Assembly (NCBI RefSeq): GCF_028765575.1
Contig: NZ_JARACO010000002.1
Coordinates: 130,733 to 154,732, forward strand
Reading direction: 5' to 3'
Origin: Aliivibrio sp. S3MY1
GTDB taxonomy: Bacteria; Pseudomonadota; Gammaproteobacteria; Enterobacterales; Vibrionaceae
DNA length: 24,000 nucleotides
Below the pieces are notes generated by a model. It saw nothing but the letters and a program-made list of their open reading frames with translations, was not told the origin of the DNA and did not search any database. Both the position numbers and the translations under genes were made by a program. Shown one piece after another: positions 2,851 through 24,000 of this stretch (within the stretch, counting starts at the first letter, position 1; each line of letters starts with the position of its first letter).

Positions 2851-5221
2851 TTTCTTTTAATAACCTAAGAGAATTAGAGACAACAATAATAGAGCTACCA
2901 GACATTCCTACAACCGCAATATAAGGAGCAACTAAGCCCATTACTGCTAACGGTAATATAATGGCATTATAGCCTAAAGCCCATGCTAAGTTTTCACGAA
3001 TGATTTTTCGTGTTTTCATCGCAAGTTCTCGCGCTTCAATAAGTCGAGAAAGATTATCCCCCAGAAGGATCATATCTGCAGAAGCTTTTGCCACATCAGT
3101 TCCTGAGCCCATCGCTATTGATAGATGTGCGCCAGCGAGGGTCGGGGCATCATTAATGCCGTCACCAACCATTAAACTTACTTCTTGTTTTGGTAATGAT
3201 TTTAAATAATCCAATTTGCCTTGTGGCGTTGCACCTGAAATAACGTCATCGATAGCTAAAGCATTAGCCACTTTTTCTACCGATGAACTACTGTCACCAG
3301 TTAGCATAGTCACTTTAATACCTAAATGGTGCAGTGATTGAATTAAGGCTTGGCTTTCTTGGCGAATTGGATCATCCAATACAAAAGCAGCAACCGCTTG
3401 TCCATTTTTAGACAACCACACTTGGTAATCTTGATTATTTTCTAATTCACAATCTTTCGCAGCAAATGCTTTATGACCAATCTTCCATTCATCGTTACCA
3501 ATAACCCCTTGTAAGCCTGATCCAATGATATTTTCAACGCTATCAAAGTGAGTTTCAGTTGAGTCTCTATATTGTGAGAAAGCACGCGCAATAGGGTGAT
3601 TAGCAAAGGATTCCATTTCAGCCGCGATTTTTTTTGCGGTTTCCTCTGATATATCTGTAAAAGAATGGACTTGAGTTAATCGAATGTTTCCTTCGGTTAA
3701 TGTTCCTGTTTTATCAATAACTAAACGGTTAACTTTACACAGTGTTTCTAAAACATGGCCACGACGAAGCATTAAACCAAGCTGTGCTAAACGAGAAGTT
3801 GAACAGGTGATTGCTGTTGGTGTTGCTAGTGATAACGCACAAGGACAAGTCGCAACAAGAACTGAAAGCATGATCCAAAAAGCATCGTCTGGTTTTGTTT
3901 CGTGCCAGTAAAACCAAGTAAATGCAGAGATGATTAGAATACCAGCCACAAAATAACGAGCGACCAGATCTGCAATTTCTGCAACTTTAGGTTTAGACAT
4001 TTGCGCTTCATCTTGAAGTTTTACAATGTTTGATATCAAAGAATCGGCTTTGGTTTTGGTTACTTTTATGGTTAAGTTACCATCGCCATTAATGGTGCCA
4101 GCGTAAACGGGGTCGGTTTCTTTTTTTGCTACCGGCATTGATTCACCAGTAAACATAGACTCATCAATCGCACTGTACCCTGAAATAACAATACCATCCG
4201 CAGGTAAGTGCTCTCCAGGAGGAACAATTACCGTATCATCTACATCAAGTGTTCGAGCAGGGACTTTCTTTCCTGATGTTAATGTTGCCATTACTGGAAT
4301 AAGCTTTAAGAGGTTTCCTGTTATTGCAGCGGCTTTTCGACGTGCGCGCATTTCAAGGAATCGACCGAGTAATAAAAAGAAGGTAAACATGGCAACAGAT
4401 TCAAAGAAAACTTCACCAGATTCAGTAACGGTTGCTACGACACTTGCGAAATAAGCAAATAACATAGCGATAGAAACAGGGACGTCCATTCCTAATGTTC
4501 TTGCTTTTAAACTGCGCCACGCATTCATATAAAATGGCAGTGCAGAGTAGAGCATAACCGGCGTTGCAAAAACTAAGCTTACATAACGTAGGTAATTTCT
4601 AAACTCGGCATCAAGATCACCAAAGACTTCAAGATATAAAGCAACGGCAAGCATCATGACTTGCATCGTTGCTAAACCGGCAACCCCTAAACGATATAAG
4701 TATTGCTTCATTGAGCGGTGATATTCTTCTTCTTGTTTGTCTGCTTCAAATGGGGCAGCTTTGTATCCCAATTGATGAATAAGAGTAAGAAGGGTACTTA
4801 ATTTAGTTTCTTCTGGGTTCCAACTCAGCAATGCTCGATGTGTAGAGGTGTTCACTTTTATTTGATGAATACCTTGTGCATTAGTAAGTTGCTTTTCGAT
4901 TAACCAAGCACATGCAGCACAAGAAACGCCATCGAGTGACAGCGTCACTTCTTTGAAGTTGTTATTGGTACGTATGAACTCTTTTTGAATCTCATTATGA
5001 TCATAATGAGCTAGGGCTTTTAGTTGTTCTGGGACTAAATCTGCTTTATCGGCAGGGGCCGTACGATATTGATAATAAGAAGATAGGCCATTTTCAACGA
5101 TAGTTTGCGCTACTGATTCACAGCCTGGGCAACACATATCACGGGTTTCACCTAAAATATCGATTTGAAAACTAGAGCCTGAAGGTACAGGCTCACTGCA
5201 GTGATAACAATCCTTCGACAT
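2843..5221 (-). CDS. ccoI: Copper-translocating P1B-type ATPase CcoI/FixI
   Basis: 792-aa ORF with DKTGTLT, a transmembrane CPC motif, GDGINDAP and N-terminal Cys-rich metal-binding motifs. It sits between ccoH and ccoS. Confidence 0.92.
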   Translation of the reverse strand: MSKDCYHCSEPVPSGSSFQIDILGETRDMCCPGCESVAQTIVENGLSSYYQYRTAPADKADLVPEQLKALAHYDHNEIQKEFIRTNNNFKEVTLSLDGVSCAACAWLIEKQLTNAQGIHQIKVNTSTHRALLSWNPEETKLSTLLTLIHQLGYKAAPFEADKQEEEYHRSMKQYLYRLGVAGLATMQVMMLAVALYLEVFGDLDAEFRNYLRYVSLVFATPVMLYSALPFYMNAWRSLKARTLGMDVPVSIAMLFAYFASVVATVTESGEVFFESVAMFTFFLLLGRFLEMRARRKAAAITGNLLKLIPVMATLTSGKKVPARTLDVDDTVIVPPGEHLPADGIVISGYSAIDESMFTGESMPVAKKETDPVYAGTINGDGNLTIKVTKTKADSLISNIVKLQDEAQMSKPKVAEIADLVARYFVAGILIISAFTWFYWHETKPDDAFWIMLSVLVATCPCALSLATPTAITCSTSRLAQLGLMLRRGHVLETLCKVNRLVIDKTGTLTEGNIRLTQVHSFTDISEETAKKIAAEMESFANHPIARAFSQYRDSTETHFDSVENIIGSGLQGVIGNDEWKIGHKAFAAKDCELENNQDYQVWLSKNGQAVAAFVLDDPIRQESQALIQSLHHLGIKVTMLTGDSSSSVEKVANALAIDDVISGATPQGKLDYLKSLPKQEVSLMVGDGINDAPTLAGAHLSIAMGSGTDVAKASADMILLGDNLSRLIEARELAMKTRKIIRENLAWALGYNAIILPLAVMGLVAPYIAVVGMSGSSIIVVSNSLRLLKENG
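4936..4948. other. matS site (MatP-binding palindrome), exact match to the consensus
   Basis: GTGACAGCGTCAC matches GTGACRNYGTCAC at all 13 positions. It lies inside the ccoI coding sequence, 5.3 kb from dif. Confidence 0.7.
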
Positions 5222-7605: not shown

Positions 7606-9036
7606 TTATAGCACTGGCTGTGGAATTGCTTTTAGGCTGTTCTTCGGAGCAGAGATAGTCTTGTATGCGTTGTACGCAAGTAAGAACATTCCTGATAAGA
7701 AGATTAGACCGCCTAAAAAGCGAACAAAGTAGAATGGGTAAGATGCTTCTAGTGATTCCACAAAGCTGTACGTTAATGTGCCATCCGAATTTACTGCACG
7801 CCACATTAAACCCTGCATAACACCTGAAATCCACATTGCTACGATGTAAAGAACTGTTCCGATTGTCGCTAACCAGAAGTGAACATTGATTAGTGATACA
7901 GAGTACATACGCTCTTGACCAAATAGCTTAGGAATTAAGTGATATAAAGAACCAATTGAAACCATTGCAACCCAACCTAACGCACCTGAATGCACGTGAC
8001 CGATAGTCCAGTCAGTGTAGTGAGATAGGGCATTTACAGATTTAATCGCCATCATTGGACCTTCAAAGGTAGACATACCATAGAAAGACAGAGAGACAAT
8101 TAAGAATCGAAGAATAGGGTCATAACGAAGTTTATGCCAAGCACCAGACAGCGTCATTATACCATTGATCATGCCGCCCCAAGATGGTGCGAATAGAACT
8201 AATGACATCACCATACCTAGTGACTGAGTCCAGTCAGGTAACGCGGTGTAATGTAAGTGGTGAGGACCGGCCCAGATATAAAGTGAGACTAATGCCCAGA
8301 AGTGAACAATAGATAAACGGTAAGAATATACAGGACGTTCCGCTTGTTTTGGTACAAAGTAATACATCATGCCAAGGAAGCCCGCTGTCAGTAGGAAGCC
8401 TACTGCATTATGGCCGTACCACCATTGAACCATTGCATCAACAGCACCAGAATAAATCGAATACGATTTTGTCATCGATACTGGAACAGCAAGGCTATTC
8501 ACAATATGAAGAACGGCAACGGTTAGAATGAAGGCTCCAAAGAACCAGTTTGCAACGTAAATATGTGATGTCTTACGCTTAAACAAAGTTCCAAAGAAAA
8601 CAATAGCATACGCAACCCAAACTAAAGTGATTGCGATATCAATCGGCCACTCTAATTCTGCGTATTCTTTACCTGATGTCATACCTAGAGGCAACGTAAT
8701 TGCTGCTGCTAAGATAATTGCTTGCCAACCCCAGAAGGTGAACGCAACTAATGGACCACCGAACAAACGTGTTTGACAAGTGCGCTGAACAACATAATAA
8801 GATGTTGCAAACAGGGCACTTGTACCGAATGCGAAAATTACTGCATTTGTATGCAGAGGACGCAAACGGCTATACGTAAGCCACGGTGTGTCGAAATTAA
8901 GTTGCGGCCAAACTAATTGAGCGGCAATTAGTACACCCACACCCATGCCAACAATACCCCATAGTATGGTAACTAAAGAGAACTGACGAACAACGGTATA
9001 GTTGTAGTTTTGTTCATGCTGCTGTACTTGGCTCAT
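7606..9036 (-). CDS. ccoN: cbb3-type cytochrome c oxidase subunit I
   Basis: 476-aa polytopic heme-copper oxidase subunit I with conserved His-rich helices ([23 protein letters not shown]). It is the first gene of ccoNOQP. Confidence 0.95.
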
Positions 9037-9084
9037 AATTGCATGCTTCCACTTTTATTATAACTACACTTTACTTTCCATAGT

Positions 9085-9101
9085 GCGAACAAATTGTTCG
9101 C
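9085..9101. promoter_or_regulatory. Perfect 8+1+8 palindrome GCGAACAA-A-TTGTTCGC in the ccoN upstream/leader region
   Basis: Read directly from the sequence, 49 to 65 bp upstream of the ccoN ATG. I could not assign a regulator. Confidence 0.35.
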
Positions 9102-9303
9102 AATGCCACCCAAAATTCAACTTCAAATAATTGGATTTGTGACCCTTTTATTTTGAAATATTCCTTTTTAATGCAAAAATGGCATTTTCGGCATCAATGA
9201 TACTGCACTTGAAAAATGAATCATAGTTGATGCAGATGGTAATTTTACGCTTAAGCAACATTTTTCCTTTTTTTTTGAACTAGATAACACAGGTTTTTCA
9301 ACT

Positions 9304-9750
9304 ATGGCTATAGAAAAGTTAACAGGCCCTCGTTTATATCAACTTATTTTCTTATTGATCGTTCTGATCAGTGCATTTACATGGAGGACAATCACATATA
9401 TAGATCCAAATGATATTGATGAAGTTACAGAGGTTTGTGATATTACAGAACAAGCTTGTAGCTTTAATATCGATAGTAATCAGCTCATTATTGATGTAAA
9501 AGAGCGCCCAATTATGCAGAATACTGAAATAAACCTTTCAATTTCAAGTCTTGATACTGAGTGGACTTTAGAGGCTGAAGGTATCAATATGAATATGGGA
9601 AAACTGAAATTTCTGCATTTAAATGCCGATAATGCTGAAGAGAAGTACTCTGTTTTTTTACCAAAATGTAAACACAATGAGATGAAATGGATGGTCAACA
9701 TATCGAATGGAGATGAGAGAATAAATGTTAGTTTTAACTCAATAAAGTAA
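9304..9750 (+). CDS. Hypothetical membrane-anchored protein (orphan, AT-rich)
   Basis: 148-aa ORF with one N-terminal hydrophobic helix (LYQLIFLLIVLISAFTW). It has a weak Shine-Dalgarno sequence and no family I recognise. Confidence 0.5.
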   Translation: MAIEKLTGPRLYQLIFLLIVLISAFTWRTITYIDPNDIDEVTEVCDITEQACSFNIDSNQLIIDVKERPIMQNTEINLSISSLDTEWTLEAEGINMNMGKLKFLHLNADNAEEKYSVFLPKCKHNEMKWMVNISNGDERINVSFNSIK

Positions 9751-9926
9751 TTAATTTCATAGCGTTAAAAAGTAAATTATTAAAAATTAGAAACTCATGA
9801 AGAAAGGTAGTATTAGTATCTAAAAGTTAAGGTTATCTCGAGTTTTCTACACAGCAGCGTTAATCAAACTTAGTATCGTAATATTAGCGAACAGACTGCT
9901 TGATTGAAGTTTACTACGTAACAATA

Positions 9927-9980
9927 ATAAGCCAGTAATTTAATCTTAGATAAATTACTGGCTTATTATATTTTATTTTA
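9927..9980 (+). terminator. Terminator-like hairpin (possibly bidirectional) at the left edge of the dif gap
   Basis: Perfect 16-bp AT-rich stem ataagccagtaattta / taaattactggcttat (9927..9942 and 9951..9966) with an 8-nt loop, followed by tatattttatttta. Confidence 0.55.
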
Positions 9981-9983
9981 ACA

Positions 9984-9996
9984 GTTACAGTGTAAC
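9984..9996. other. matS-like palindrome (variant arms), left flank of dif
   Basis: GTTACAGTGTAAC, embedded in the perfect 15-bp palindrome AGTTACAGTGTAACT (9983..9997). It ends 193 bp before dif. Confidence 0.5.
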
Positions 9997-10036
9997 TAGT
10001 ATTATGGCAAAGCGTATTAAGAACAGAGATGTTCTA

Positions 10037-10086
10037 AGCTAATAATCATTAGATAGATACGAAGTATTATTTAATGATTATTAGCT
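10037..10086. repeat. Inverted repeat with 14-bp arms and a 22-bp spacer
   Basis: agctaataatcatt (10037..10050) is the exact reverse complement of aatgattattagct (10073..10086). Confidence 0.8.
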
Positions 10087-10189
10087 ATTTTATGGTAAAT
10101 ATGATTATGGTTAAATTACCTGTTATTGGAAGAGTTAGAGTAGTGATGGGGAAGATAAAACAGACTAATATCAAGTATAACCATATCTC

Positions 10190-10217
10190 ATTTAACATAA
10201 TATACATAATGCGCACT
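10190..10217 (-). other. dif: dif, the XerC/XerD chromosome dimer resolution site
   Basis: The minus strand reads AGTGCGCATTA-TGTATA-TTATGTTAAAT. It matches 26 of 28 positions of E. coli dif (GGTGCGCATAATGTATATTATGTTAAAT) and 27 of 28 of V. cholerae dif1 as I recall it. Confidence 0.9.
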
Positions 10218-10345
10218 GTGATATACAGTAATAATAGATGATAATTTACTGATAACCATGAGTTTTAGTCAATTATCTGTTATTTATGTCTTTTGAATTT
10301 GTATCTTATTATCTTAGTCAGTTACACTAACTTAATTATATGATT

Positions 10346-10358
10346 GTTACCTTGTCAC
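10346..10358. other. matS-like palindrome (one variant arm), right flank of dif
   Basis: GTTACCTTGTCAC, starting 128 bp after dif and lying 50 bp upstream of the lipoprotein gene. Confidence 0.45.
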
Positions 10359-10408
10359 AATTAGCTTCAACGTTGTTTTGTGTTCAAGTATTTACCTAAG
10401 GTTTTTAA

Positions 10409-10966
10409 ATGAAAAATAATAAACTGACTCTCCTTGCATTGCTTTCCAGTTTACTGCTTTCTGGCTGCGCTAGTTATTCTATTACAGAAAAAGAAATGAC
10501 TGACTATCTGTCCGATGAAATTCATGTGGAAAAGTCTGTTGGGATCCCCGGCTTACTCTACGCTCAGGTTAATGTTGAAAATGTTAATGTTCAAATCGGA
10601 CGTATTGATGCTGATAGGATCAGTGTTTTCGCAAACACGACAGCTGATATTCAAATGATGGATAAATTAGAACAAACCCTATCACTTACTTTAGAATTTA
10701 GTGCTATTCCTAAATACGATAAAGAAACTGGCGAGATTTATTTGAAGTCTCTTCGCTTAGAGAAATTTGAGGATAAAAATAAACAATTATCACCAGAACT
10801 GACGTCATTATTAAAACCAGCCGTTTCTATCATCGGTTATGCGTTATCTAATGAACCGGCTTATAAGTTAAATTCAGAGAAACTAAAGGAATCTCTAATA
10901 AAGTCAGCTGAACCTAATTTGGCTATTAAGAACAATAAGCTTGTGATTGATTTGTTTGGTAAGTAA
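10409..10966 (+). CDS. Lipoprotein, DUF1439 (YceB-like) family
   Basis: 185-aa ORF with a signal peptide and lipobox LLLSGC. Its size and sequence character resemble YceB-type lipoproteins. Confidence 0.7.
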   Translation: MKNNKLTLLALLSSLLLSGCASYSITEKEMTDYLSDEIHVEKSVGIPGLLYAQVNVENVNVQIGRIDADRISVFANTTADIQMMDKLEQTLSLTLEFSAIPKYDKETGEIYLKSLRLEKFEDKNKQLSPELTSLLKPAVSIIGYALSNEPAYKLNSEKLKESLIKSAEPNLAIKNNKLVIDLFGK

Positions 10967-11010
10967 TAAATCAATTAGTTATAGTGCACTAGGCTACGTT
11001 TGATTAATAA

Positions 11011-11043
11011 CTACATGAGCTGTTACTTTAATAGCTCATGTAG
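11011..11043. terminator. Hairpin between the convergent lipoprotein and matP genes (overlaps the matP stop)
   Basis: Perfect 11-bp stem ctacatgagct / agctcatgtag with an 11-nt loop. The flanking T-tracts are weak. Confidence 0.45.
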
Positions 11044-11469
11044 ATCTGCTTTAAGTGATGACACTGTTTGACTCGCCTTTTCTGTTCTCGAGGCCTCACT
11101 TAATAAATACTCAATCGTATCTGATAGTGTTGAGTCTAAATCCTGTGCTCTAAGAGAAAGCTTTTCCCACACACGATAATCTAAGTCGATTGATTTCTTA
11201 CGCGTATGTTCTTGTTCTGCATTAAAGTGACGCTTTCTTTTCGCTCGAATTGCTTGCTTTAGCTTATTCTCTAAATCAGGATTCATATGTTTTTGGATCC
11301 ATTCGAGTGATTTTACCGGCTCATGCTCTAGTTTTAAGAACTCATTAACCTGTTGTTGTTGTTCACTAGAATCGATATAACACGTAATTGATCCCCCCAT
11401 ACGATGCTTATTAAATAAATACATCCATTTCCAACCGGCTTCTAGATTTTCAAGTTGTTGGTATTTCAT
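11023..11469 (-). CDS. matP: Macrodomain Ter organiser protein MatP
   Basis: MKYQQLENLEAGWKW..., RAKRKRHFNAEQEHTRKKSIDL... is colinear with E. coli MatP. The track ORF starts 3 codons earlier at a GTG; I prefer the ATG at 11469. Confidence 0.93.
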   Translation of the reverse strand: MKYQQLENLEAGWKWMYLFNKHRMGGSITCYIDSSEQQQQVNEFLKLEHEPVKSLEWIQKHMNPDLENKLKQAIRAKRKRHFNAEQEHTRKKSIDLDYRVWEKLSLRAQDLDSTLSDTIEYLLSEASRTEKASQTVSSLKADLHELLK

Positions 11470-11502
11470 ATAACGCACTCATATTAAAGAGAATAAATTT
11501 GA

Positions 11503-11515
11503 GTGACAGTGTAAC
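11503..11515. other. matS-like palindrome in the matP promoter region
   Basis: GTGACAGTGTAAC, 34 bp upstream of the matP ATG. Its 15-mer AGTGACAGTGTAACT differs by one base from the site at 9983..9997. Confidence 0.55.
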
Positions 11516-11536
11516 TCTAGTTTGCATTATCATCAA
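11508..11536 (-). promoter_or_regulatory. Candidate sigma70 promoter of matP
   Basis: The minus strand reads TTGATG, 17 nt, TACACT. The -10 hexamer lies inside the matS-like site. Confidence 0.35.
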
Positions 11537-11649
11537 CATTCTTCGTGGATAATGAGATTAAGATCTAATTGGTAATGTAACTACTGAAAAATCAGACGTG
11601 TGTAGTTATGTCATGTATAATCAGTTTTATTTTTTATCAATAAGTAAGC

Positions 11650-13317
11650 ATGCAGTTAGACACGCCATTTCTAATCGAACCTCAGTACGATCATATTCAA
11701 GATGCCTTGGATCAATCTCACTCAATCGACGCACAATCCCCCTATTCTCTGCAGCCAAAATTGACTCAAGCTTTAGAGGTTTTCTCTCATATAAATGGCA
11801 TTAATATACTGCAAATCAATGCGCTAGATAATCACGTTTATCGTGAATATATCGCAAACTGGTTATGCTTAAACACATCAAATCGCTTAGCTAATGACGA
11901 AATGGTCCCTGTTGTGGTTATTGAAAGTGCCTCTGAAGCAGAGCTTTTCGGTGTTTATCATAATAAAAGTGATATTCTTGAACATGGCTTATTACAAAAA
12001 GCCAATGGTGGTTTTCTAATTATTTCACCAAGTCTCCTACTGGCAAATCCACACTTTTGGCCAAGACTTAAAAGTTTATTACAAGGTCACCCGATAACAA
12101 TTTCAGCAAGTGATTCAAAGTCACCAATGCCGCATACGCACCGTTTAATGGTTGATGTTAAATTAGTTATCGTTAGTGATCGTGCTTTACTTGGGGAAAT
12201 CGAACAATTAGAGCCCGACTTGCTCGCTGGCATGTCAATGTTTGCAGAATATGAGTTTGATACCACATTAGAAAGTGACACGGTAACTGACTACATAAAA
12301 CTGATTAACTCACTATCTATTAAGAATAAACACTTACCGCTACAAAATGGTTCTGCTTTATTACCGTTACTCAAAGCAGGCGCAAGAGAATGTGAAGATC
12401 AAACTCGACTTAACTTGTGTTTATTATGGTTAAACTCTATTTTAGCTCATGCTTCTTTGGCTTCACTGTCAAAAGAATATATTACTGCTGATGATTTTAA
12501 CCAATCATTTAAAACCAAGTATCATATTGAATCCTATTTACCATCGAGAGCCCTAGATGATATTTTAGAGCAAAATATATTCATTGAAACTCAAGGTGAA
12601 CAAATTGGTCAAATCAATGGGTTAACTGTTGTCTCTGTACCCGGACACCCTATTTCTTACGGTGAACCTTCTCGAATTACCTGTGTCGTACATGCGGGTG
12701 ATGGTGAATTATCAGATGTAGAACGCAAAGTAGAATTAGGTGGCGATCTTCATGCTAAAGGCATGTTGATAATGCAAGCTTATATACTTAGCCAGTTAAA
12801 AACTCATGAACCACTTCCTTTTACGGCCTCGATGGTATTTGAACAATCTTACTGTGAAGTTGATGGTGACAGTGCAAGTTTAGCTGAGCTGTGTGCATTT
12901 TTAAGTGCCCTTGCGATAAAACCAATTAATCAAAGTTTGGCAATTACTGGTTCTGTCGATCAGTTCGGTATGATTCAACCAATTGGCGGCGTAAACGAAA
13001 AAATTGAAGCCTTCTTCCAGCTGTGTGAAAAACGCGGGTTAACTGGTGAGCAAGGTGTTATTATCCCAAAAACAAACGGAATTAATCTTGTACTTTCCGA
13101 TGAGGTAATTCAAGCAGTTAATGAAAAACAGTTTACTATTCATCTTGTTAGTCATGTTGAAGAAGCTGTAGAATTATTAACAGGATTACCATTGCAATCT
13201 GAAGAGCACGAATCGATTTTCTCTTTAATTGCTCAACATATAGAAGATGTTGAACATAATCCGAACCAGTGTTCCGCTTTATTCTGTCGTATTAAGAACT
13301 GGTTTAACCAGCGCTGA
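11650..13317 (+). CDS. ycbZ: Lon-like protease homolog (YcbZ/LonH type; C-terminal Lon S16 protease domain)
   Basis: 555-aa ORF whose C-terminal half is colinear with E. coli YcbZ (GEPSRITCVVH, ERKVELGG..HAKG, FEQSY.EVDGDSAS.AELCA, ITGSVDQFG..QPIGGVNEKIE). It lies between matP and fabA as in E. coli. Confidence 0.85.
   Translation: MQLDTPFLIEPQYDHIQDALDQSHSIDAQSPYSLQPKLTQALEVFSHINGINILQINALDNHVYREYIANWLCLNTSNRLANDEMVPVVVIESASEAELFGVYHNKSDILEHGLLQKANGGFLIISPSLLLANPHFWPRLKSLLQGHPITISASDSKSPMPHTHRLMVDVKLVIVSDRALLGEIEQLEPDLLAGMSMFAEYEFDTTLESDTVTDYIKLINSLSIKNKHLPLQNGSALLPLLKAGARECEDQTRLNLCLLWLNSILAHASLASLSKEYITADDFNQSFKTKYHIESYLPSRALDDILEQNIFIETQGEQIGQINGLTVVSVPGHPISYGEPSRITCVVHAGDGELSDVERKVELGGDLHAKGMLIMQAYILSQLKTHEPLPFTASMVFEQSYCEVDGDSASLAELCAFLSALAIKPINQSLAITGSVDQFGMIQPIGGVNEKIEAFFQLCEKRGLTGEQGVIIPKTNGINLVLSDEVIQAVNEKQFTIHLVSHVEEAVELLTGLPLQSEEHESIFSLIAQHIEDVEHNPNQCSALFCRIKNWFNQR
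12275..12287. other. matS-like palindrome (one variant arm, non-RNY centre)
   Basis: GTGACACGGTAAC, inside the ycbZ-like coding sequence. Confidence 0.4.
13297..13313. promoter_or_regulatory. FadR-box-like palindrome upstream of the fabA promoter
   Basis: AACTGGTTTAACCAGCG contains the perfect CTGGTT-T-AACCAG palindrome; compare the FadR operator core CTGGT-N3-ACCAG. It overlaps the last codons of the ycbZ-like gene. Confidence 0.45.
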
Positions 13318-13323
13318 TCAGAC

Positions 13324-13352
13324 TTGATAAGCGCACAAGTGTTAGCTAGAAT
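13324..13352 (+). promoter_or_regulatory. fabA sigma70 promoter
   Basis: TTGATA (13324..13329), a 17-bp spacer, then TAGAAT (13347..13352), about 30 bp upstream of the fabA ATG. Confidence 0.6.
13330..13347. promoter_or_regulatory. FabR operator-like sequence filling the fabA promoter spacer
   Basis: AGCGCACAAGTGTTAGCT matches 16 of 18 positions of the E. coli fabA/fabB FabR palindrome AGCGTACACGTGTTAGCT as I recall it. Confidence 0.55.
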
Positions 13353-13382
13353 CTCAGCAACTTATTTAGGAGTAATACTTTA

Positions 13383-13901
13383 ATGCAAAACAAACCTAGT
13401 TCATACAATCGTGAAGATTTACTAGCATCAAGCCGTGGCGAATTATTTGGCGCAAACGGACCACAACTACCTGCACCAAACATGTTAATGATGGATCGCA
13501 TCCCTCTTATGTCTGAAACAGAAGGTCTATTTGGTAAAGGTAAAGTTATCGCTGAGCTAGATATTACTCCAGACCTTTGGTTCTTCGATTGTCACTTCCC
13601 AGGTGATCCAGTAATGCCAGGTTGTCTTGGTCTTGATGCAATGTGGCAACTAGTTGGTTTCTTCCTTGGTTGGATTGGTGGCGAAGGTAAAGGTCGTGCT
13701 TTAGGTGTGGGTGAAGTTAAATTTACAGGTCAAGTTCTACCTACCGCTAAAAAAGTAACGTATGAAATTGATTTTAAACGTGTTATCAACCGTAAATTAG
13801 TAATGGGCCTAGCGGATGGTCGTGTTCTAGTTGATGGTAAAGAAATCTACGTTGCGAAAGATCTTAAAGTGGGTCTTTTTCAAGACACATCAAACTTCTA
13901 A
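13383..13901 (+). CDS. fabA: 3-hydroxydecanoyl-ACP dehydratase / trans-2-decenoyl-ACP isomerase
   Basis: 172-aa ORF, near-identical to E. coli FabA, including the active-site region [24 protein letters not shown]. Confidence 0.97.
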
Positions 13902-13920
13902 TTTAAGAATGTATTGATTG

Positions 13921-13951
13921 ATAAAGCTAGCCTTATGCTGGCTTTATTTTT
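13921..13951 (+). terminator. Rho-independent terminator of fabA
   Basis: 11-bp stem ataaagctagc / gctggctttat (one G-U pair) with loop cttat, followed by a T-run. Confidence 0.7.
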
Positions 13952-14058
13952 ACCCAAACCACTATAGTTATAGTGCTCTAGGCCGTAATTAGATGACCCT
14001 CGTTCGTTAACCAATAATAATGATCAGATACTTAATGGCATTGGTCTTACTCTAGATA

Positions 14059-14089
14059 AAATTAAAGCCCCATAAAGAGGCTTTAATTT
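14059..14089 (-). terminator. Terminator-like hairpin downstream of rmf
   Basis: Perfect 11-bp stem aaattaaagcc / ggctttaattt with a 9-nt loop, 15 bp beyond the rmf stop. The U-rich tail is partly within the stem. Confidence 0.55.
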
Positions 14090-14103
14090 GAAATTCTATT
14101 TAA

Positions 14104-14277
14104 TTATTTGAACAAACCGGAATGTTTGTCATCTCTTGCGTCCCGCCAACCTCCTAGCCAACATGAACGAGCATCCATTGCTTGATATGGGCAGTTCTCT
14201 GATGAACGGCCATTTAAACCAGCCTTGTAACCTTGTGATTGTGCTCGCTCTAAACGGTCACGCTTTTGTCTCTTCAT
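14104..14277 (-). CDS. rmf: Ribosome modulation factor (57 aa; absent from the ORF track)
   Basis: Hand translation gives MKRQKRDRLERAQSQGYKAGLNGRSSENCPYQAMDARSCWLGGWRDARDDKHSGLFK, colinear with E. coli Rmf (MKRQKRDRLERAHQRGYQAGIAGRSKEMCPYQ...WLGGWREA). It lies next to fabA as in E. coli. Confidence 0.92.
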   Translation of the reverse strand: MKRQKRDRLERAQSQGYKAGLNGRSSENCPYQAMDARSCWLGGWRDARDDKHSGLFK

Positions 14278-14423
14278 AGTTCAGTCCTCATAGATGGAAG
14301 GCATAATGCTTCAATAAATATACTACTTTACTACTGATACCCTTTTATTCCGTTAGGGTTCATCACGAACATTTCATGATGACAATATTAAGAATCGGAC
14401 AAGTTGAATCTTTTTTCAAGTCT

Positions 14424-14460
14424 AAAAAAAGCCCGAAGTCTCAATTTGTGACTTCGGGCT
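14424..14460 (-). terminator. Rho-independent terminator ending the rlmL-to-GlyGly-CTERM gene string
   Basis: 11-bp GC-rich stem agcccgaagtc / gacttcgggct (14430..14440 and 14450..14460), followed on the minus strand by a T-run of 6 or more. It lies 18 bp after the stop at 14479. Confidence 0.85.
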
Positions 14461-14478
14461 TAGTCTTATAAATTGCTT

Positions 14479-16161
14479 TTATTTAATTCGCTTTCGCATG
14501 AAACCAAATAAACCAAGCAGTGTCAGAGCACCAAAACCAAGTGAACCACCTTGACGTTCGATGATACTGTTCTCAGATGGACGATCATCAATATCAGAAG
14601 CTGTAGCTCCTGCAATTGGAACTAGCTTAACTGCAACTACAGTTTCAGTTGTACTTCCGTTACCACAATAAGAGTCACTCGCTACAGAGTCATAACCACC
14701 AGCACATTTAAGTGCAGTTGCTGAGATAACACCAGCGTCATTAATATCACTTGCATCGTAGATTCTATATTGATTGTTATGGGAACTTTCTGTTCCACCA
14801 TTGGTCAAATCATCAATTATCCAAGCTCTTTTGTTGAAAATATCTTTACGCTCTTGAACAGACCCTTGATCAACAGTTCCGTATGGGTAAATAAACGCAC
14901 GTTGACGACGTTGCTTACCATCGTATTCACGGTTATTTTCTACATCTACACGGCCAACAATTTCATTGAAATTATTGATCCCGCCCATCTCTCCGCCTGC
15001 ACCAGCAAAAAAGATTTCACTAGAAAGAAAAGAAGCTCTAGGTGTTGGGCTTGAAGTGTCTGAAATAACAAATAAACGATTAGCGACCGCACCATTTTGA
15101 GGATAACTACCCGAGCGCTTTGCTTGACCAACAGCAACTAAATTTTTATTTATATTTGTTACAACAGAATTAGAGTGAATAAAATCACCACCTATTTCAG
15201 CTTGAGCATTTGCAACAGTATTAGAGTCCCAATTACTCTTACTAATATCAGTACCTGGTGTTTTTTGCTTAAAAATAGTTGCTTGCATTAAGCGTGAATC
15301 GCCATCGGCAGTACTATTATATCCAACAATATACATGCGATCTGAATCATTAGCATCGATAATTAAATCACGAGCACTACCTTGAGCATAAATATCATTT
15401 CCGCTGCCGTTATCTGAGGTGTTTTTCCAATTTAATTCTATTGGTGTATTGCTCCCATCCCATATAGCTGCTTTAGAGAAATTATTTATATGTCCAGTTC
15501 CTGAAGATATACTACCTACTGTATATGTATCCTCTTTTGCCCATGCTCTAGATTGTTTACCAGTTCCATTAGCTAAATCAGCTGAATTAAATGCTTGATT
15601 TCGGGTAGTTGATGAATGGTAATTTCCAATAGCTTCAGCTCCAGATACTAGACTATTAATTACTACGTTAGTATCTGTTTTTCTAAAAGCAACTTTGTCA
15701 ATAAATGCTGCTGAATTATTTGGTGGCGTATTGCCTCCATTTAATTCGTTATACCAGCCTTCCCATTGATTTGAAGCCCAGGCTTCACAGGTAGAGTAAC
15801 CTAATTGAAAAAAGCAATAGTCTTCAAAACCATTATATCCGTCTTCAATATAATCAAAAGAATTATCGATCGCGAATGCAACTTCTTCGCGATAAGACAC
15901 GCCTTCAGCCCAATTACGAGTTTCGTTTGCTACAACAAAACTATCACATGCTTTTCCTGTCACACTTGGTGATCCAAAACACCCTAAAGGTTCAGTGGCC
16001 TCATCAACTATGACTGGTTCAACCGCAGTTCCATAATATTCTATACTTCCACGTGGATCTGGATCTGCATTTACTTCCACCACTTTATAAAGCGCCGCTT
16101 GCGCAGGAAGCGCAGCGGACACCAAAACAGCTAATGTGGTTAATTGTAATTTACTACTCAT
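14479..16161 (-). CDS. Secreted repeat protein with a GlyGly-CTERM (rhombosortase) sorting signal; probably DUF3466 family
   Basis: 560-aa ORF with signal peptide ...AALPAQA|A. The C-terminus GGSLGFGALTLLGLFGFMRKRIK shows Gly-Gly, then a TM, then a basic tail. Internal recurring I-N-x-x-x-V-(V/I)-G-like segments suggest a repeat or propeller fold. A good Shine-Dalgarno sequence (AGGAAG) is present. Confidence 0.75.
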   Translation of the reverse strand: MSSKLQLTTLAVLVSAALPAQAALYKVVEVNADPDPRGSIEYYGTAVEPVIVDEATEPLGCFGSPSVTGKACDSFVVANETRNWAEGVSYREEVAFAIDNSFDYIEDGYNGFEDYCFFQLGYSTCEAWASNQWEGWYNELNGGNTPPNNSAAFIDKVAFRKTDTNVVINSLVSGAEAIGNYHSSTTRNQAFNSADLANGTGKQSRAWAKEDTYTVGSISSGTGHINNFSKAAIWDGSNTPIELNWKNTSDNGSGNDIYAQGSARDLIIDANDSDRMYIVGYNSTADGDSRLMQATIFKQKTPGTDISKSNWDSNTVANAQAEIGGDFIHSNSVVTNINKNLVAVGQAKRSGSYPQNGAVANRLFVISDTSSPTPRASFLSSEIFFAGAGGEMGGINNFNEIVGRVDVENNREYDGKQRRQRAFIYPYGTVDQGSVQERKDIFNKRAWIIDDLTNGGTESSHNNQYRIYDASDINDAGVISATALKCAGGYDSVASDSYCGNGSTTETVVAVKLVPIAGATASDIDDRPSENSIIERQGGSLGFGALTLLGLFGFMRKRIK

Positions 16162-18083: not shown

Positions 18084-18306
18084 TGTCTTCTAACCAATTC
18101 TTTAATTGCGATATATTGAATGGCCAATTGAGCTCAGATAAGCCATTGGCCACCACAGGTATTGTGACACCGTAACGAGAGAAAAGCTCATCGTTGAACG
18201 CTATGTCTACCGTGTCTACTTTTTCGATATCTACACCCACCTCCACAAGCAAGTCAAACGCTTGCTCGCAAAGATGGCAGCCTTCCGTGCTATAGAGAGT
18301 AATCAT
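18064..18306 (-). CDS. Glutaredoxin-like small thioredoxin-fold protein (DUF836 type)
   Basis: 80-aa ORF with a CxxC motif (EGCHLCE) near the N-terminus. Its 3' end overlaps the uup start by 20 nt. Confidence 0.7.
   Translation of the reverse strand: MITLYSTEGCHLCEQAFDLLVEVGVDIEKVDTVDIAFNDELFSRYGVTIPVVANGLSELNWPFNISQLKNWLEDNGITYN
18164..18176. other. matS-like palindrome (one variant arm)
   Basis: GTGACACCGTAAC, inside the glutaredoxin-like coding sequence. Confidence 0.5.
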
Positions 18307-22967: not shown

Positions 22968-24000
22968 CTATTGTTTTGACGTACAGCTTAAGTTTAGTAA
23001 CGTAAGTTCTCTTAATGCTACCGAGAATTTAGCAAACTCATGGACTGAACCTACCTTAAATTCATTCAAGATATTATCCCAACGTCCTACTGATGTAGCA
23101 TTCTTTTCACACCACTCTTCAATGGCCTTTTCTACTGACTCGGTATCTTTGTACTCAGCAAGCACTAATTGAGTCAGTTGACGTTGCTGCCAATCTAAGT
23201 CTTCACGAAAAGAAGCACGAGCAAGCGCTTGCCAATGGTTATCAACACCTTGGTTATTAATCTGTTTTAAGAACCAATGCAGAGATAACTTATCACCCAG
23301 AACATAGTATAAACGCGCCGTCGTTGAAACCGGTTGCTTCATATCTACCGCAACAGCTGAAATGTCCATTGCAGAGTACAAGCTACTTAGCCGAGCAAGA
23401 ACATTACCTAGCTCACAAGGTACACCCATTTCTAGATAGTGATTAGCTTGTTCAATATGCTCAACTACTTCATCGTTAACTAAGTAACTATCAAGGTTAT
23501 CTTTAATCTCATAAACTGCAGGCTTATATTTTTCAATAAGCTCCTGAATTGACATATTTTGTGAGCCATTACGTAATAACCAACGAGTCACTCGACGAAT
23601 GGTTCTACGCATTGCAAATAATGCTTCATACTGAGCCTCTGTCGTTGAGATATTATCGAGATTACGGATCTGTTTAAATAAGTCACCAAAATCAAAAATA
23701 GCTCGAGTCGCTGAATACGCATTGGCTATATCAGTGACGGTGTAACCTGTTTCTTCTTGCAAACGAGTGATGAAGTTACAACCCATCTCATTAACCATCT
23801 GATTTGCTAAACAAGTCGCGATGATTTCTGAGCGTAGAGGATGATTATCCATTTCTGCTTTATAGTTACGTTGTAACTCTGTTGGGAAGTAAGTCGTCAG
23901 TAAATCAGCATGGTATGGATTATGTGCAATCTCATCACAGGCTAACTCATCCTTTAGAACCATTTTTCCATAAGCCACAAGAACTGAAAGCTCTGGACGA
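22968..24000 (-). CDS. NAD-specific glutamate dehydrogenase (large Bac_GDH type), C-terminal part; continues beyond the window
   Basis: The frame stays open past the track's GTG start to the window edge (...RPELSVLVAYGKMVLKDEL...). The C-terminal region resembles the ~1600-aa NAD-GDH family. Confidence 0.8.
   Translation of the reverse strand, partial: RPELSVLVAYGKMVLKDELACDEIAHNPYHADLLTTYFPTELQRNYKAEMDNHPLRSEIIATCLANQMVNEMGCNFITRLQEETGYTVTDIANAYSATRAIFDFGDLFKQIRNLDNISTTEAQYEALFAMRRTIRRVTRWLLRNGSQNMSIQELIEKYKPAVYEIKDNLDSYLVNDEVVEHIEQANHYLEMGVPCELGNVLARLSSLYSAMDISAVAVDMKQPVSTTARLYYVLGDKLSLHWFLKQINNQGVDNHWQALARASFREDLDWQQRQLTQLVLAEYKDTESVEKAIEEWCEKNATSVGRWDNILNEFKVGSVHEFAKFSVALRELTLLNLSCTSKQ
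23734..23746. other. matS-like palindrome (one variant arm)
   Basis: GTGACGGTGTAAC, inside the NAD-GDH coding sequence. Confidence 0.5.
23865..23877. other. matS-like palindrome (both arms variant)
   Basis: GTTACGTTGTAAC, inside the NAD-GDH coding sequence, 119 bp from the previous site. Confidence 0.4.

Follow-up and report, generated by a model that had tools for sequence, protein, structure and literature searches.

One dif site per chromosome has been predicted for Aliivibrio (Vibrio) fischeri ES114 in two surveys (Carnoy & Roten 2009; Kono et al. 2011), both of which also give xerC and xerD of this strain (298 and 303 aa, respectively, in Carnoy & Roten 2009). The site predicted on its chromosome I (Table S1 of Carnoy & Roten 2009; supplement of Kono et al. 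2011) is the same 28-mer that we describe here at 10190..10217 of the window, by which we mean the whole 24-kb stretch of Aliivibrio DNA that was analysed. With these predictions of 2009 and 2011 for the genus, the dif call itself is already known, down to its exact sequence. For Vibrio cholerae dif1, the form AGTGCGCATTA-TGTATG-TTATGTTAAAT is given in Table 2 of PMC2410131 and in GenBank KF664568, and it is implied by the text of Val et al. 2008 (PMC2533119). The N16961 genome copy of dif1 reads AGTGCGTATTA-TGTATG-..., with T at position 7 (PMC2731167, PMC13142030). According to Val et al. 2008 (PMC2533119), V. cholerae XerCD recombined dif1 as well as its G17A variant 'dif12', and more FtsK-independent recombination was seen with 'dif12' than with dif1. 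From the wording of that paper, we infer that 'dif12' (dif1 with G17 changed to A) would be the exact 28-mer of the window. The same paper describes the dif1 and dif2 flanks of Vibrio species as having no conserved motif for accessory proteins.

Results

Sequence and uniqueness of the 28-mer

The 28-mer lies on the minus strand and has the 11-6-11 layout that fits the gamma-proteobacterial dif consensus. As the initial annotation had read it, the minus strand runs from a XerC arm (AGTGCGCATTA, 10217-10207) through a 6-bp central region (TGTATA, 10206-10201) to a XerD arm (TTATGTTAAAT, 10200-10190). It shares 26 of 28 positions with E. coli dif, as had been stated, the centre and XerD arm being identical and the 2 mismatches lying elsewhere. 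The figure of 27/28 that had been given for V. cholerae dif1 holds for AGTGCGCATTA-TGTATG-TTATGTTAAAT but not for the N16961 genome copy, which matches at 26/28.

The site is the sole match in the 24-kb window at ≤3 mismatches, and it remained single when the scan was extended to 42.6 kb of the contig, a stretch assembled from the window and two flanking loci. No 28-mer match at ≤3 mismatches arose in any of 100 dinucleotide-preserving shuffles. Apart from dif itself, the only sequence of the window with ≤9 mismatches to dif is a degenerate inverted one at 10073-10100, which stands 89 bp from dif, and the XerD arm alone is matched three times in the window at ≤1 mismatch.

Gene neighbourhood and orthologous loci

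The site is located in a gene-free gap of 658 bp (9751-10408) between orf148 and a DUF1439 lipoprotein gene. The GC content of the gap is 29-31%, versus 37-42% elsewhere, in agreement with the AT-rich, gene-free gap of about 660 bp noted originally; the only two mechanical ORFs in it (43 and 55 aa) cover sequence that is unconserved in relatives. A minus-strand run of uspE, fnr, ccoS-associated genes, ccoI, fixH, ccoP, ccoO, and ccoN is followed by orf148 (+), the dif gap, the DUF1439 lipoprotein gene (+), matP (−), a lon-like protease gene (+), and fabA (+), with DUF3466, uup, rlmKL, zapC, pyrD, and gdh beyond fabA. On the XerD side, the interval is bounded by orf148 (9304..9750, + strand), which encodes a hypothetical protein with no Pfam or NCBIfam family match. 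This gene is kept divergent beside ccoN across Vibrionaceae, with 25-99% identity, and its product has a hydrophobic N-terminal segment. A terminator scan placed the intrinsic terminator of orf148, a 19-pair stem followed by a T-run, at 9924..9969 (+ strand), upstream of the conserved module described below. On the XerC side, the gap is bounded by the DUF1439 (YceB-like) lipoprotein gene (10409..10966, + strand), whose start is 191 bp from dif. Next to it, 806 bp from dif, is matP (11023..11478, − strand), the gene of the Ter macrodomain organiser, and the encoded protein is 99% identical to MatP of Aliivibrio sp. EL58. In reverse complement, the window corresponds to 39556-63555 of the 185,733-bp draft contig JARACN010000005.1 (GCA_028765605.1), with a single mismatch over 12.3 kb of compared sequence; dif is at 53339-53366 of this contig. 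No phage genes flank dif within the window, and xerC, xerD, and ftsK are absent from the genes of the 24-kb window.

In all 11 Aliivibrio loci fetched through MatP, dif is kept at the orthologous place. It lies 0.8-1.4 kb downstream of matP, in one orientation, with the exception of A. finisterrensis A33 (locus L005), where the distance is 4.2 kb owing to an insertion. Furthermore, dif is found between matP and orf148/ccoN, in the same orientation, in loci from Vibrio, Grimontia, Salinivibrio, and Enterovibrio, and the 28-mer sequence is shared identically by A. fischeri, A. logei, and many Vibrio species. When the intergenic regions of the Aliivibrio loci are aligned, the 28-mer stands out as a conserved island, the DNA around it being mostly unalignable. 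The ES114 site is at position 1,446,505 of the 2,897,536-bp record NC_006840.2, that is, at 49.9% of its length and just downstream of matP; about 3.5 kb of extra genes separate the module from orf148 in this strain. A V. cholerae locus without phages (L037) has the order ccoN-orf148-dif-matP-lon-like-fabA, and dif1 of N16961 sits between rtxA and rstC (Carnoy & Roten 2009), which confirms the cco-fabA interval that the initial annotation had given for the integrated elements of V. cholerae.

At the chromosome I position, the dif centre is TGTATA in the window, L001, and L009-L011, and TATATC in L002, L003, L004, L005, L007, and L008. TATATC is also the centre of the chromosome II dif in A. 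fischeri ES114. According to Val et al. 2008 (PMC2533119), two chromosomes that share the same centre may be at risk of fusing, which makes the chromosome II centres of the TATATC species worth checking.

Signals of the chromosome terminus

Within the 42.6-kb stretch, the matP side of dif has a GC skew of +0.089 and the cco side one of −0.013. The maximum of cumulative G-C was found at about window position 1400, which is 8.8 kb from dif on the cco side; the skew shift of ES114 has been placed 14.3 kb from dif (Carnoy & Roten 2009). Much of the 8.8-kb offset arises because the cco operon is transcribed against replication, and raw GC skew within the 24-kb window alone was indecisive because this head-on operon masks the signal. 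GC3 skew (+ strand) is positive in 8 of the 9 cco-side genes and negative in 7 of the 10 matP-side genes, with the sign change at the gap. The cumulative-skew check proposed in the initial annotation was thus answered in part: the sign changes across dif in the 42.6 kb, but the maximum is near dif rather than at it.

The exact KOPS sequence (GGGNAGGG) does not occur inside the 24-kb window, and the single exact copy in the 42.6-kb stretch is directed at dif. Pooled over 44 orthologous loci holding dif, 23 of 23 exact KOPS are directed at dif (13/13 on the + strand to its left and 10/10 on the − strand to its right). KOPS of V. cholerae chromosome I point at dif1 as well, according to Val et al. 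2008 (PMC2533119). A motif scan recovered one matS site with the exact consensus GTGACAGCGTCAC (4936..4948) and three with one mismatch (11503-11515, 18164-18176, and 23734-23746), so that GTGACRNYGTCAC at ≤1 mismatch occurs 4 times in the window versus 0.06 expected. With a relaxed definition, 7 matS-like sites were counted in the 42.6 kb versus 0.06 expected, an enrichment of about 100-fold. The matS-like sequence at 11503-11515, GTGACAGTGTAAC, is 25 bp upstream of the matP start, in the divergent matP/lon-like promoter region, and MatP could regulate its own gene through this site.

The location near the skew switch, the converging KOPS, and the enrichment of matS support the placement of dif in the terminus, within the Ter macrodomain. 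The proposal that the window spans the chromosome terminus is borne out by the skew sign change, the 23/23 KOPS, the matS enrichment, and the 49.9% position of the ES114 site.

Integrated elements at the orthologous site

Elements with dif-like junctions are integrated at the orthologous site in relatives (L005, viral contig L088, and the 43 viral contigs recovered). In L005, a 3.3-kb RS1-like satellite (11293-14625) is integrated at dif. It encodes a Xre-type repressor, an RstA-like Rep (phrog_702), a ssDNA-binding protein (phrog_1199), a 117-aa unknown, and an anti-repressor (phrog_6488); the combination of repressor, Rep, ssDNA-binding protein, and anti-repressor is the gene set of RS1. The two ends of the element are an orphan XerC arm, located at the ancestral position (11293), and a complete dif. 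The left junction consists of AGTGCGCATTA-TATACAGTG-TTATGTTGAG, a short hairpin, and an inverted AATTCGCATTA-TACTCA-TTATGTTACGG, and by this layout it is a CTX-type two-site (inverted) attP. In the sister strain of this genome (L004), dif is empty. Furthermore, a complete filamentous prophage (inovirus) with pIV, pI/Zot, pIII-like, and pII-like genes is present on the XerC side of dif in L088, a viral contig whose flank is of the Aliivibrio type, and the prophage body is on this side in all 43 viral contigs.

In the window itself, neither a second XerC arm nor a hybrid junction was found. No other Aliivibrio locus has a shorter ccoN-matP interval (that of L001 is equal), and the 191 bp from dif to the DUF1439 start codon leave no room for an integrated element. 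These results agree with the initial annotation, which had regarded dif as an attachment site for XerCD-dependent elements that is unoccupied here; the comparison of the ccoN-matP interval in relatives that it had suggested uncovered the satellite of L005.

A conserved module on the XerD side of dif

The same Aliivibrio intergenic alignment contains a second, larger conserved island on the XerD side of dif, which spans 10037-10116 (+ strand) and is referred to here as the module. Its order on the + strand is a hairpin, ATTTTATGGTAAAT, four bases, and TTATGGTTAAAT, followed by a spacer to dif. The hairpin (10037..10086, + strand) is long, with 23 pairs and −23.2 kcal/mol as RNA, and stands directly upstream of a T-run. 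The T-run and the invariant word ATTTTATGGTAAAT occupy 10087..10100 (+ strand) and include TTATGGTAAAT at 10090-10100. Across 45 diverse sequences, TATTTTATGGTAAAT varies in only one of its 15 columns, and that column is still at least 90% conserved; TATTTTATGGTAAAT contains TTATGGTAAAT, which is the XerD arm of ColE1 cer (Table 2 of PMC2410131). The distal XerD-arm-like word TTATGGTTAAAT (10105..10116, + strand) is also conserved, with the family consensus TTAYGnTnAAT, and is inverted relative to dif. The spacer between module and XerD arm (10117..10189, about 73 nt) is unconserved in sequence and roughly kept in length in the Aliivibrio alignment, and its length is 60-164 nt across 79 distinct sequences. 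On the far side, conservation ends at the hairpin end.

The hairpin sequence differs between lineages while pairing is retained. In the outer ten stem pairs, 90.9% of cells are paired versus 80.1% in shuffles, with 41 double changes versus 12.6. On 4 of 5 covariation measures, none of 500 shuffles reached the observed value, and slid controls were far lower. The strand reading towards dif (+) folds better in 64 of the 79 distinct sequences, with 133 versus 62 G-U pairs. The inverted 28-mer of the module was considered as a true XerC/XerD site and rejected, its XerC-like arm being a mere hairpin stem that is unconserved on plasmids.

The module was seen in the window, L001-L011, L017-L080, L081-L123, L128, L130, L131, and L134-L137, and it adjoins dif in all Vibrionaceae genera sampled. 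In 1.46 Mb of genome loci, each dif with sufficient flank has a module, and the module core is within 300 nt of the dif XerD arm in 43 of 44 copies; the viral contigs containing the core likewise all have dif in the same geometry (43/43). The question of dif2 was addressed through chromids filed as plasmids. Six of the eight secondary replicons examined have the module beside a dif-like core site, with the same geometry, namely replicons of Vibrio sp. THAF64 (1.85 Mb), Photobacterium sp. GJ3 (1.69 Mb), Salinivibrio kushneri (659 kb), V. pelagius (396 kb), and V. fortis (332 kb), and a conjugative plasmid of V. nigripulchritudo (247 kb). Two plasmids have the module without a recognisable Xer core site nearby. 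A scan of viral contigs for V. cholerae-type dif2 returned one unrelated metagenomic contig only, and E. coli dif has no such module on its XerD side (40-nt published flank as query). In V. cholerae El Tor (KF664568, L128), the module is 69 nt from dif1, and it is present, unannotated, in GenBank records of CTX and TLC junctions. In the El Tor record, the module hairpin meets a perfect matS (GTGACATTGTCAC, L128:650-672) at its 3' foot, some 135 bp away from dif1.

Several deviating layouts were recorded. In Vibrionales bacterium SWAT-3 (L072:14672-14899), dif and module are inverted relative to matP, with the hairpin and dif degraded (dif has 4 mismatches), and in Vibrio sp. JPW-9-11-11 (L023:17157-17192) the module occurs without a recognisable dif within range; both layouts suggest local rearrangements of the terminus. 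The DNA separating the module from orf148 is a variable hot spot, which holds sensor kinases in most Aliivibrio, and in V. cholerae the 3' end of rtxA abuts the module. Some genomes (L088:10330-12093 and L103:11588-13347) have a small island directly past the hairpin, with a 103-aa gene (phrog_15908) ending at the hairpin foot, a second gene (about 120 aa), and a tyrosine recombinase (about 300 aa or longer).

No description of the module was found in the literature on Xer accessory sequences for Vibrionaceae, and a literature search with the module sequence returned unrelated eukaryotic papers only. Rfam searches of 9000-11700 at permissive E-values gave sub-threshold eukaryotic miRNA/snoRNA noise only, leaving the module without an RNA family, and a V. 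cholerae transcriptome table lists no ncRNA at the module position. The module may be a new conserved DNA element beside dif and is apparently undescribed; judging by the flank statement of Val et al. 2008, it may have been overlooked there.

Discussion

Our analyses suggest that 10190..10217 is the functional dif of Aliivibrio chromosome I, a prediction to which we assign a probability of roughly 0.94. XerC is predicted to bind the arm AGTGCGCATTA and XerD the arm TTATGTTAAAT. On chromosome dimers caught at the septum, FtsK would follow KOPS to dif from both replichores and activate XerD, upon which the two Aliivibrio recombinases would exchange strands across the TGTATA centre and resolve the dimer. 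The site would act within the Ter macrodomain, beside matP and among matS sites, with replication probably ending at dif or a few kb away. As a XerCD substrate, dif would also serve as an attachment site for IMEX, and in relatives the insertion is on the XerC side.

A very improbable alternative is that the 28-mer is a leftover integration junction (a hybrid attR or attL), with the true dif elsewhere on the replicon. Integration of IMEX does make dif-like junctions, as at 11293 of L005, the N16961 copy of dif1 appears to have a phage-type XerC arm with T at position 7, and an inverted dif-like site (10073-10100) lies 89 bp off. However, both arms and the canonical TGTATA centre are intact here, a complete site is found at the same place in all Aliivibrio loci and across genera, and KOPS polarity switches exactly at dif. 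The window has no phage genes on either side and no other site with ≤9 mismatches except the degenerate inverted one. That the 28-mer is a functionless chance or relic sequence in AT-rich intergenic DNA is even harder to credit, with a likelihood close to nil. The gap is AT-rich and near-matches to the XerD arm recur in the window, but no shuffle produced a match even at 3 mismatches, and the site is a conserved island amid unalignable DNA, with the same 28 bases in A. fischeri and A. logei as well as in many Vibrio species. Its conservation already refutes such a reading.

The remaining alternative concerns the extent of the site, not its identity: dif may work jointly with the module (10037-10116) as an accessory or insulating element, making the functional unit about 180 bp instead of 28 bp. 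We consider this unlikely on balance, yet of far more weight than the two readings above. The close pairing of module and dif (43 of 44 module cores at ≤300 nt from the XerD arm, and 43/43 viral contigs) argues for a joint unit, as do the same geometry at the Xer-type sites of six secondary replicons and plasmids, the identity of the invariant word with the cer XerD arm, and the lack of a module beside E. coli dif. Against it, no conserved motifs were reported in the flanks by Val et al. 2008 (PMC2533119), two plasmids have the module without a detectable Xer core nearby, and the hairpin and T-run could be a simple transcription terminator.

Indeed, the best-supported minimal reading of the module is that its hairpin and T-run would form an intrinsic terminator halting the transcription of convergent genes before the Xer site, because of the strand preference, the T-run, and the convergent genes at all loci where orientation was checked. 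A sigma-70 promoter firing away from dif on the opposite strand (TTAACC, 16 nt, TAAAAT) was also considered; it was one of 8 hits in a promoter scan, versus 4.9 expected. We ranked it below the terminator because the strand opposite to it folds better (twice the G-U pairs), the genes beyond are convergent wherever checked, conservation ends with the hairpin, and no ncRNA is listed in the V. cholerae table. Nevertheless, a terminator does not explain the invariance of the XerD-arm word or the presence of a second XerD-like word, and for this reason an accessory role in Xer recombination is plausible, for example in XerD loading, in the control of FtsK-independent exchange, or in IMEX traffic. 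Tentatively, and with the odds still somewhat against it, we propose from sequence comparison that Vibrionaceae Xer sites (dif1, dif2, and those of megaplasmids and conjugative plasmids) would not be bare 28-mers. Instead, they may carry a conserved companion element 57-164 bp past the XerD arm, in which two inverted XerD-like words, one of them the invariant TTATGGTAAAT, abut a covarying terminator-like hairpin.

For annotation, the dif call has practical value: it locates the chromosome I terminus on a draft contig and reveals, in an Aliivibrio strain, a vacant integration site for phages and satellites that depend on XerCD. The module, one of whose words is a sequence known to bind XerD, accompanies Xer sites on all Vibrionaceae replicon types examined. 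Binding of XerD or another terminus factor to it, or insulation of the site from incoming transcription, would make it a so far undescribed accessory part of dimer resolution or IMEX traffic. Should the module influence recombination, FtsK activation, or phage integration, then dif1, as the attachment site of the cholera-toxin phage, would have to be understood and engineered differently.

Comparison with known Xer sites

The accessory sequences of cer (ColE1) and psi (pSC101) are on the XerC side and bind PepA with ArgR or ArcA. The Vibrionaceae sites resemble them in having a one-sided conserved flank of about 100-200 bp, and TTATGGTAAAT is the cer XerD arm. In contrast, the Vibrionaceae element is inverted and has a covarying hairpin; it lies on the side of the XerD arm and is also found at FtsK-dependent chromosomal sites. 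Plasmid-type Xer sites are independent of FtsK, and their accessory sequences, about 180-200 bp next to the XerC arm, bind PepA with ArgR or ArcA. The locus is not of this type, its conserved flank being XerD-side and the site chromosomal with KOPS polarity; no ArgR or ArcA box was seen by eye.

In the pdif modules of Acinetobacter, Xer-type sites are paired in inverted orientation, and the XDS of Bacillus subtilis are stand-alone sequences near the terminus that resemble XerD half-sites. The arrangement of dif and an inverted XerD-like word is reminiscent of both. Unlike pdif modules, there is no cargo gene between the Vibrionaceae dif and the inverted word, and the XerC-like arm is unconserved on plasmids. 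In contrast to the XDS system, Vibrionaceae use MukBEF and MatP, not SMC unloading by XerD.

E. coli dif is like the site of the window in its 11-6-11 layout, centre, and XerD arm, in the 26/28 identity, in its intergenic location at the terminus, and in having KOPS directed at it, but its flank is without the companion module. In addition, matP-fabA is far from dif in E. coli. Compatibility with CTX phage depends on the bases of the centre. The centre is TGTATA in the window and TGTATG in V. cholerae dif1, the former probably being that of the engineered 'dif12', as inferred from the text of Val et al. 2008. V. cholerae dif1 (Huber & Waldor 2002; Val et al. 2008) is alike in its arms, in the match at 27/28 or 26/28, in the matP-ccoN interval, and in the KOPS switch; it hosts IMEX of the CTX, RS1, TLC, and VGJ types, whereas the site of the window is unoccupied. 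Closest of all is the chromosome I dif of ES114 (Carnoy & Roten 2009; Kono et al. 2011). Although it belongs to another species and strain, has the extra 3.5 kb or so of genes between module and orf148, and is, like ours, a computational prediction, it shares with the site of the window the 28-mer, the matP and cco neighbours, the orientation, and the genus.
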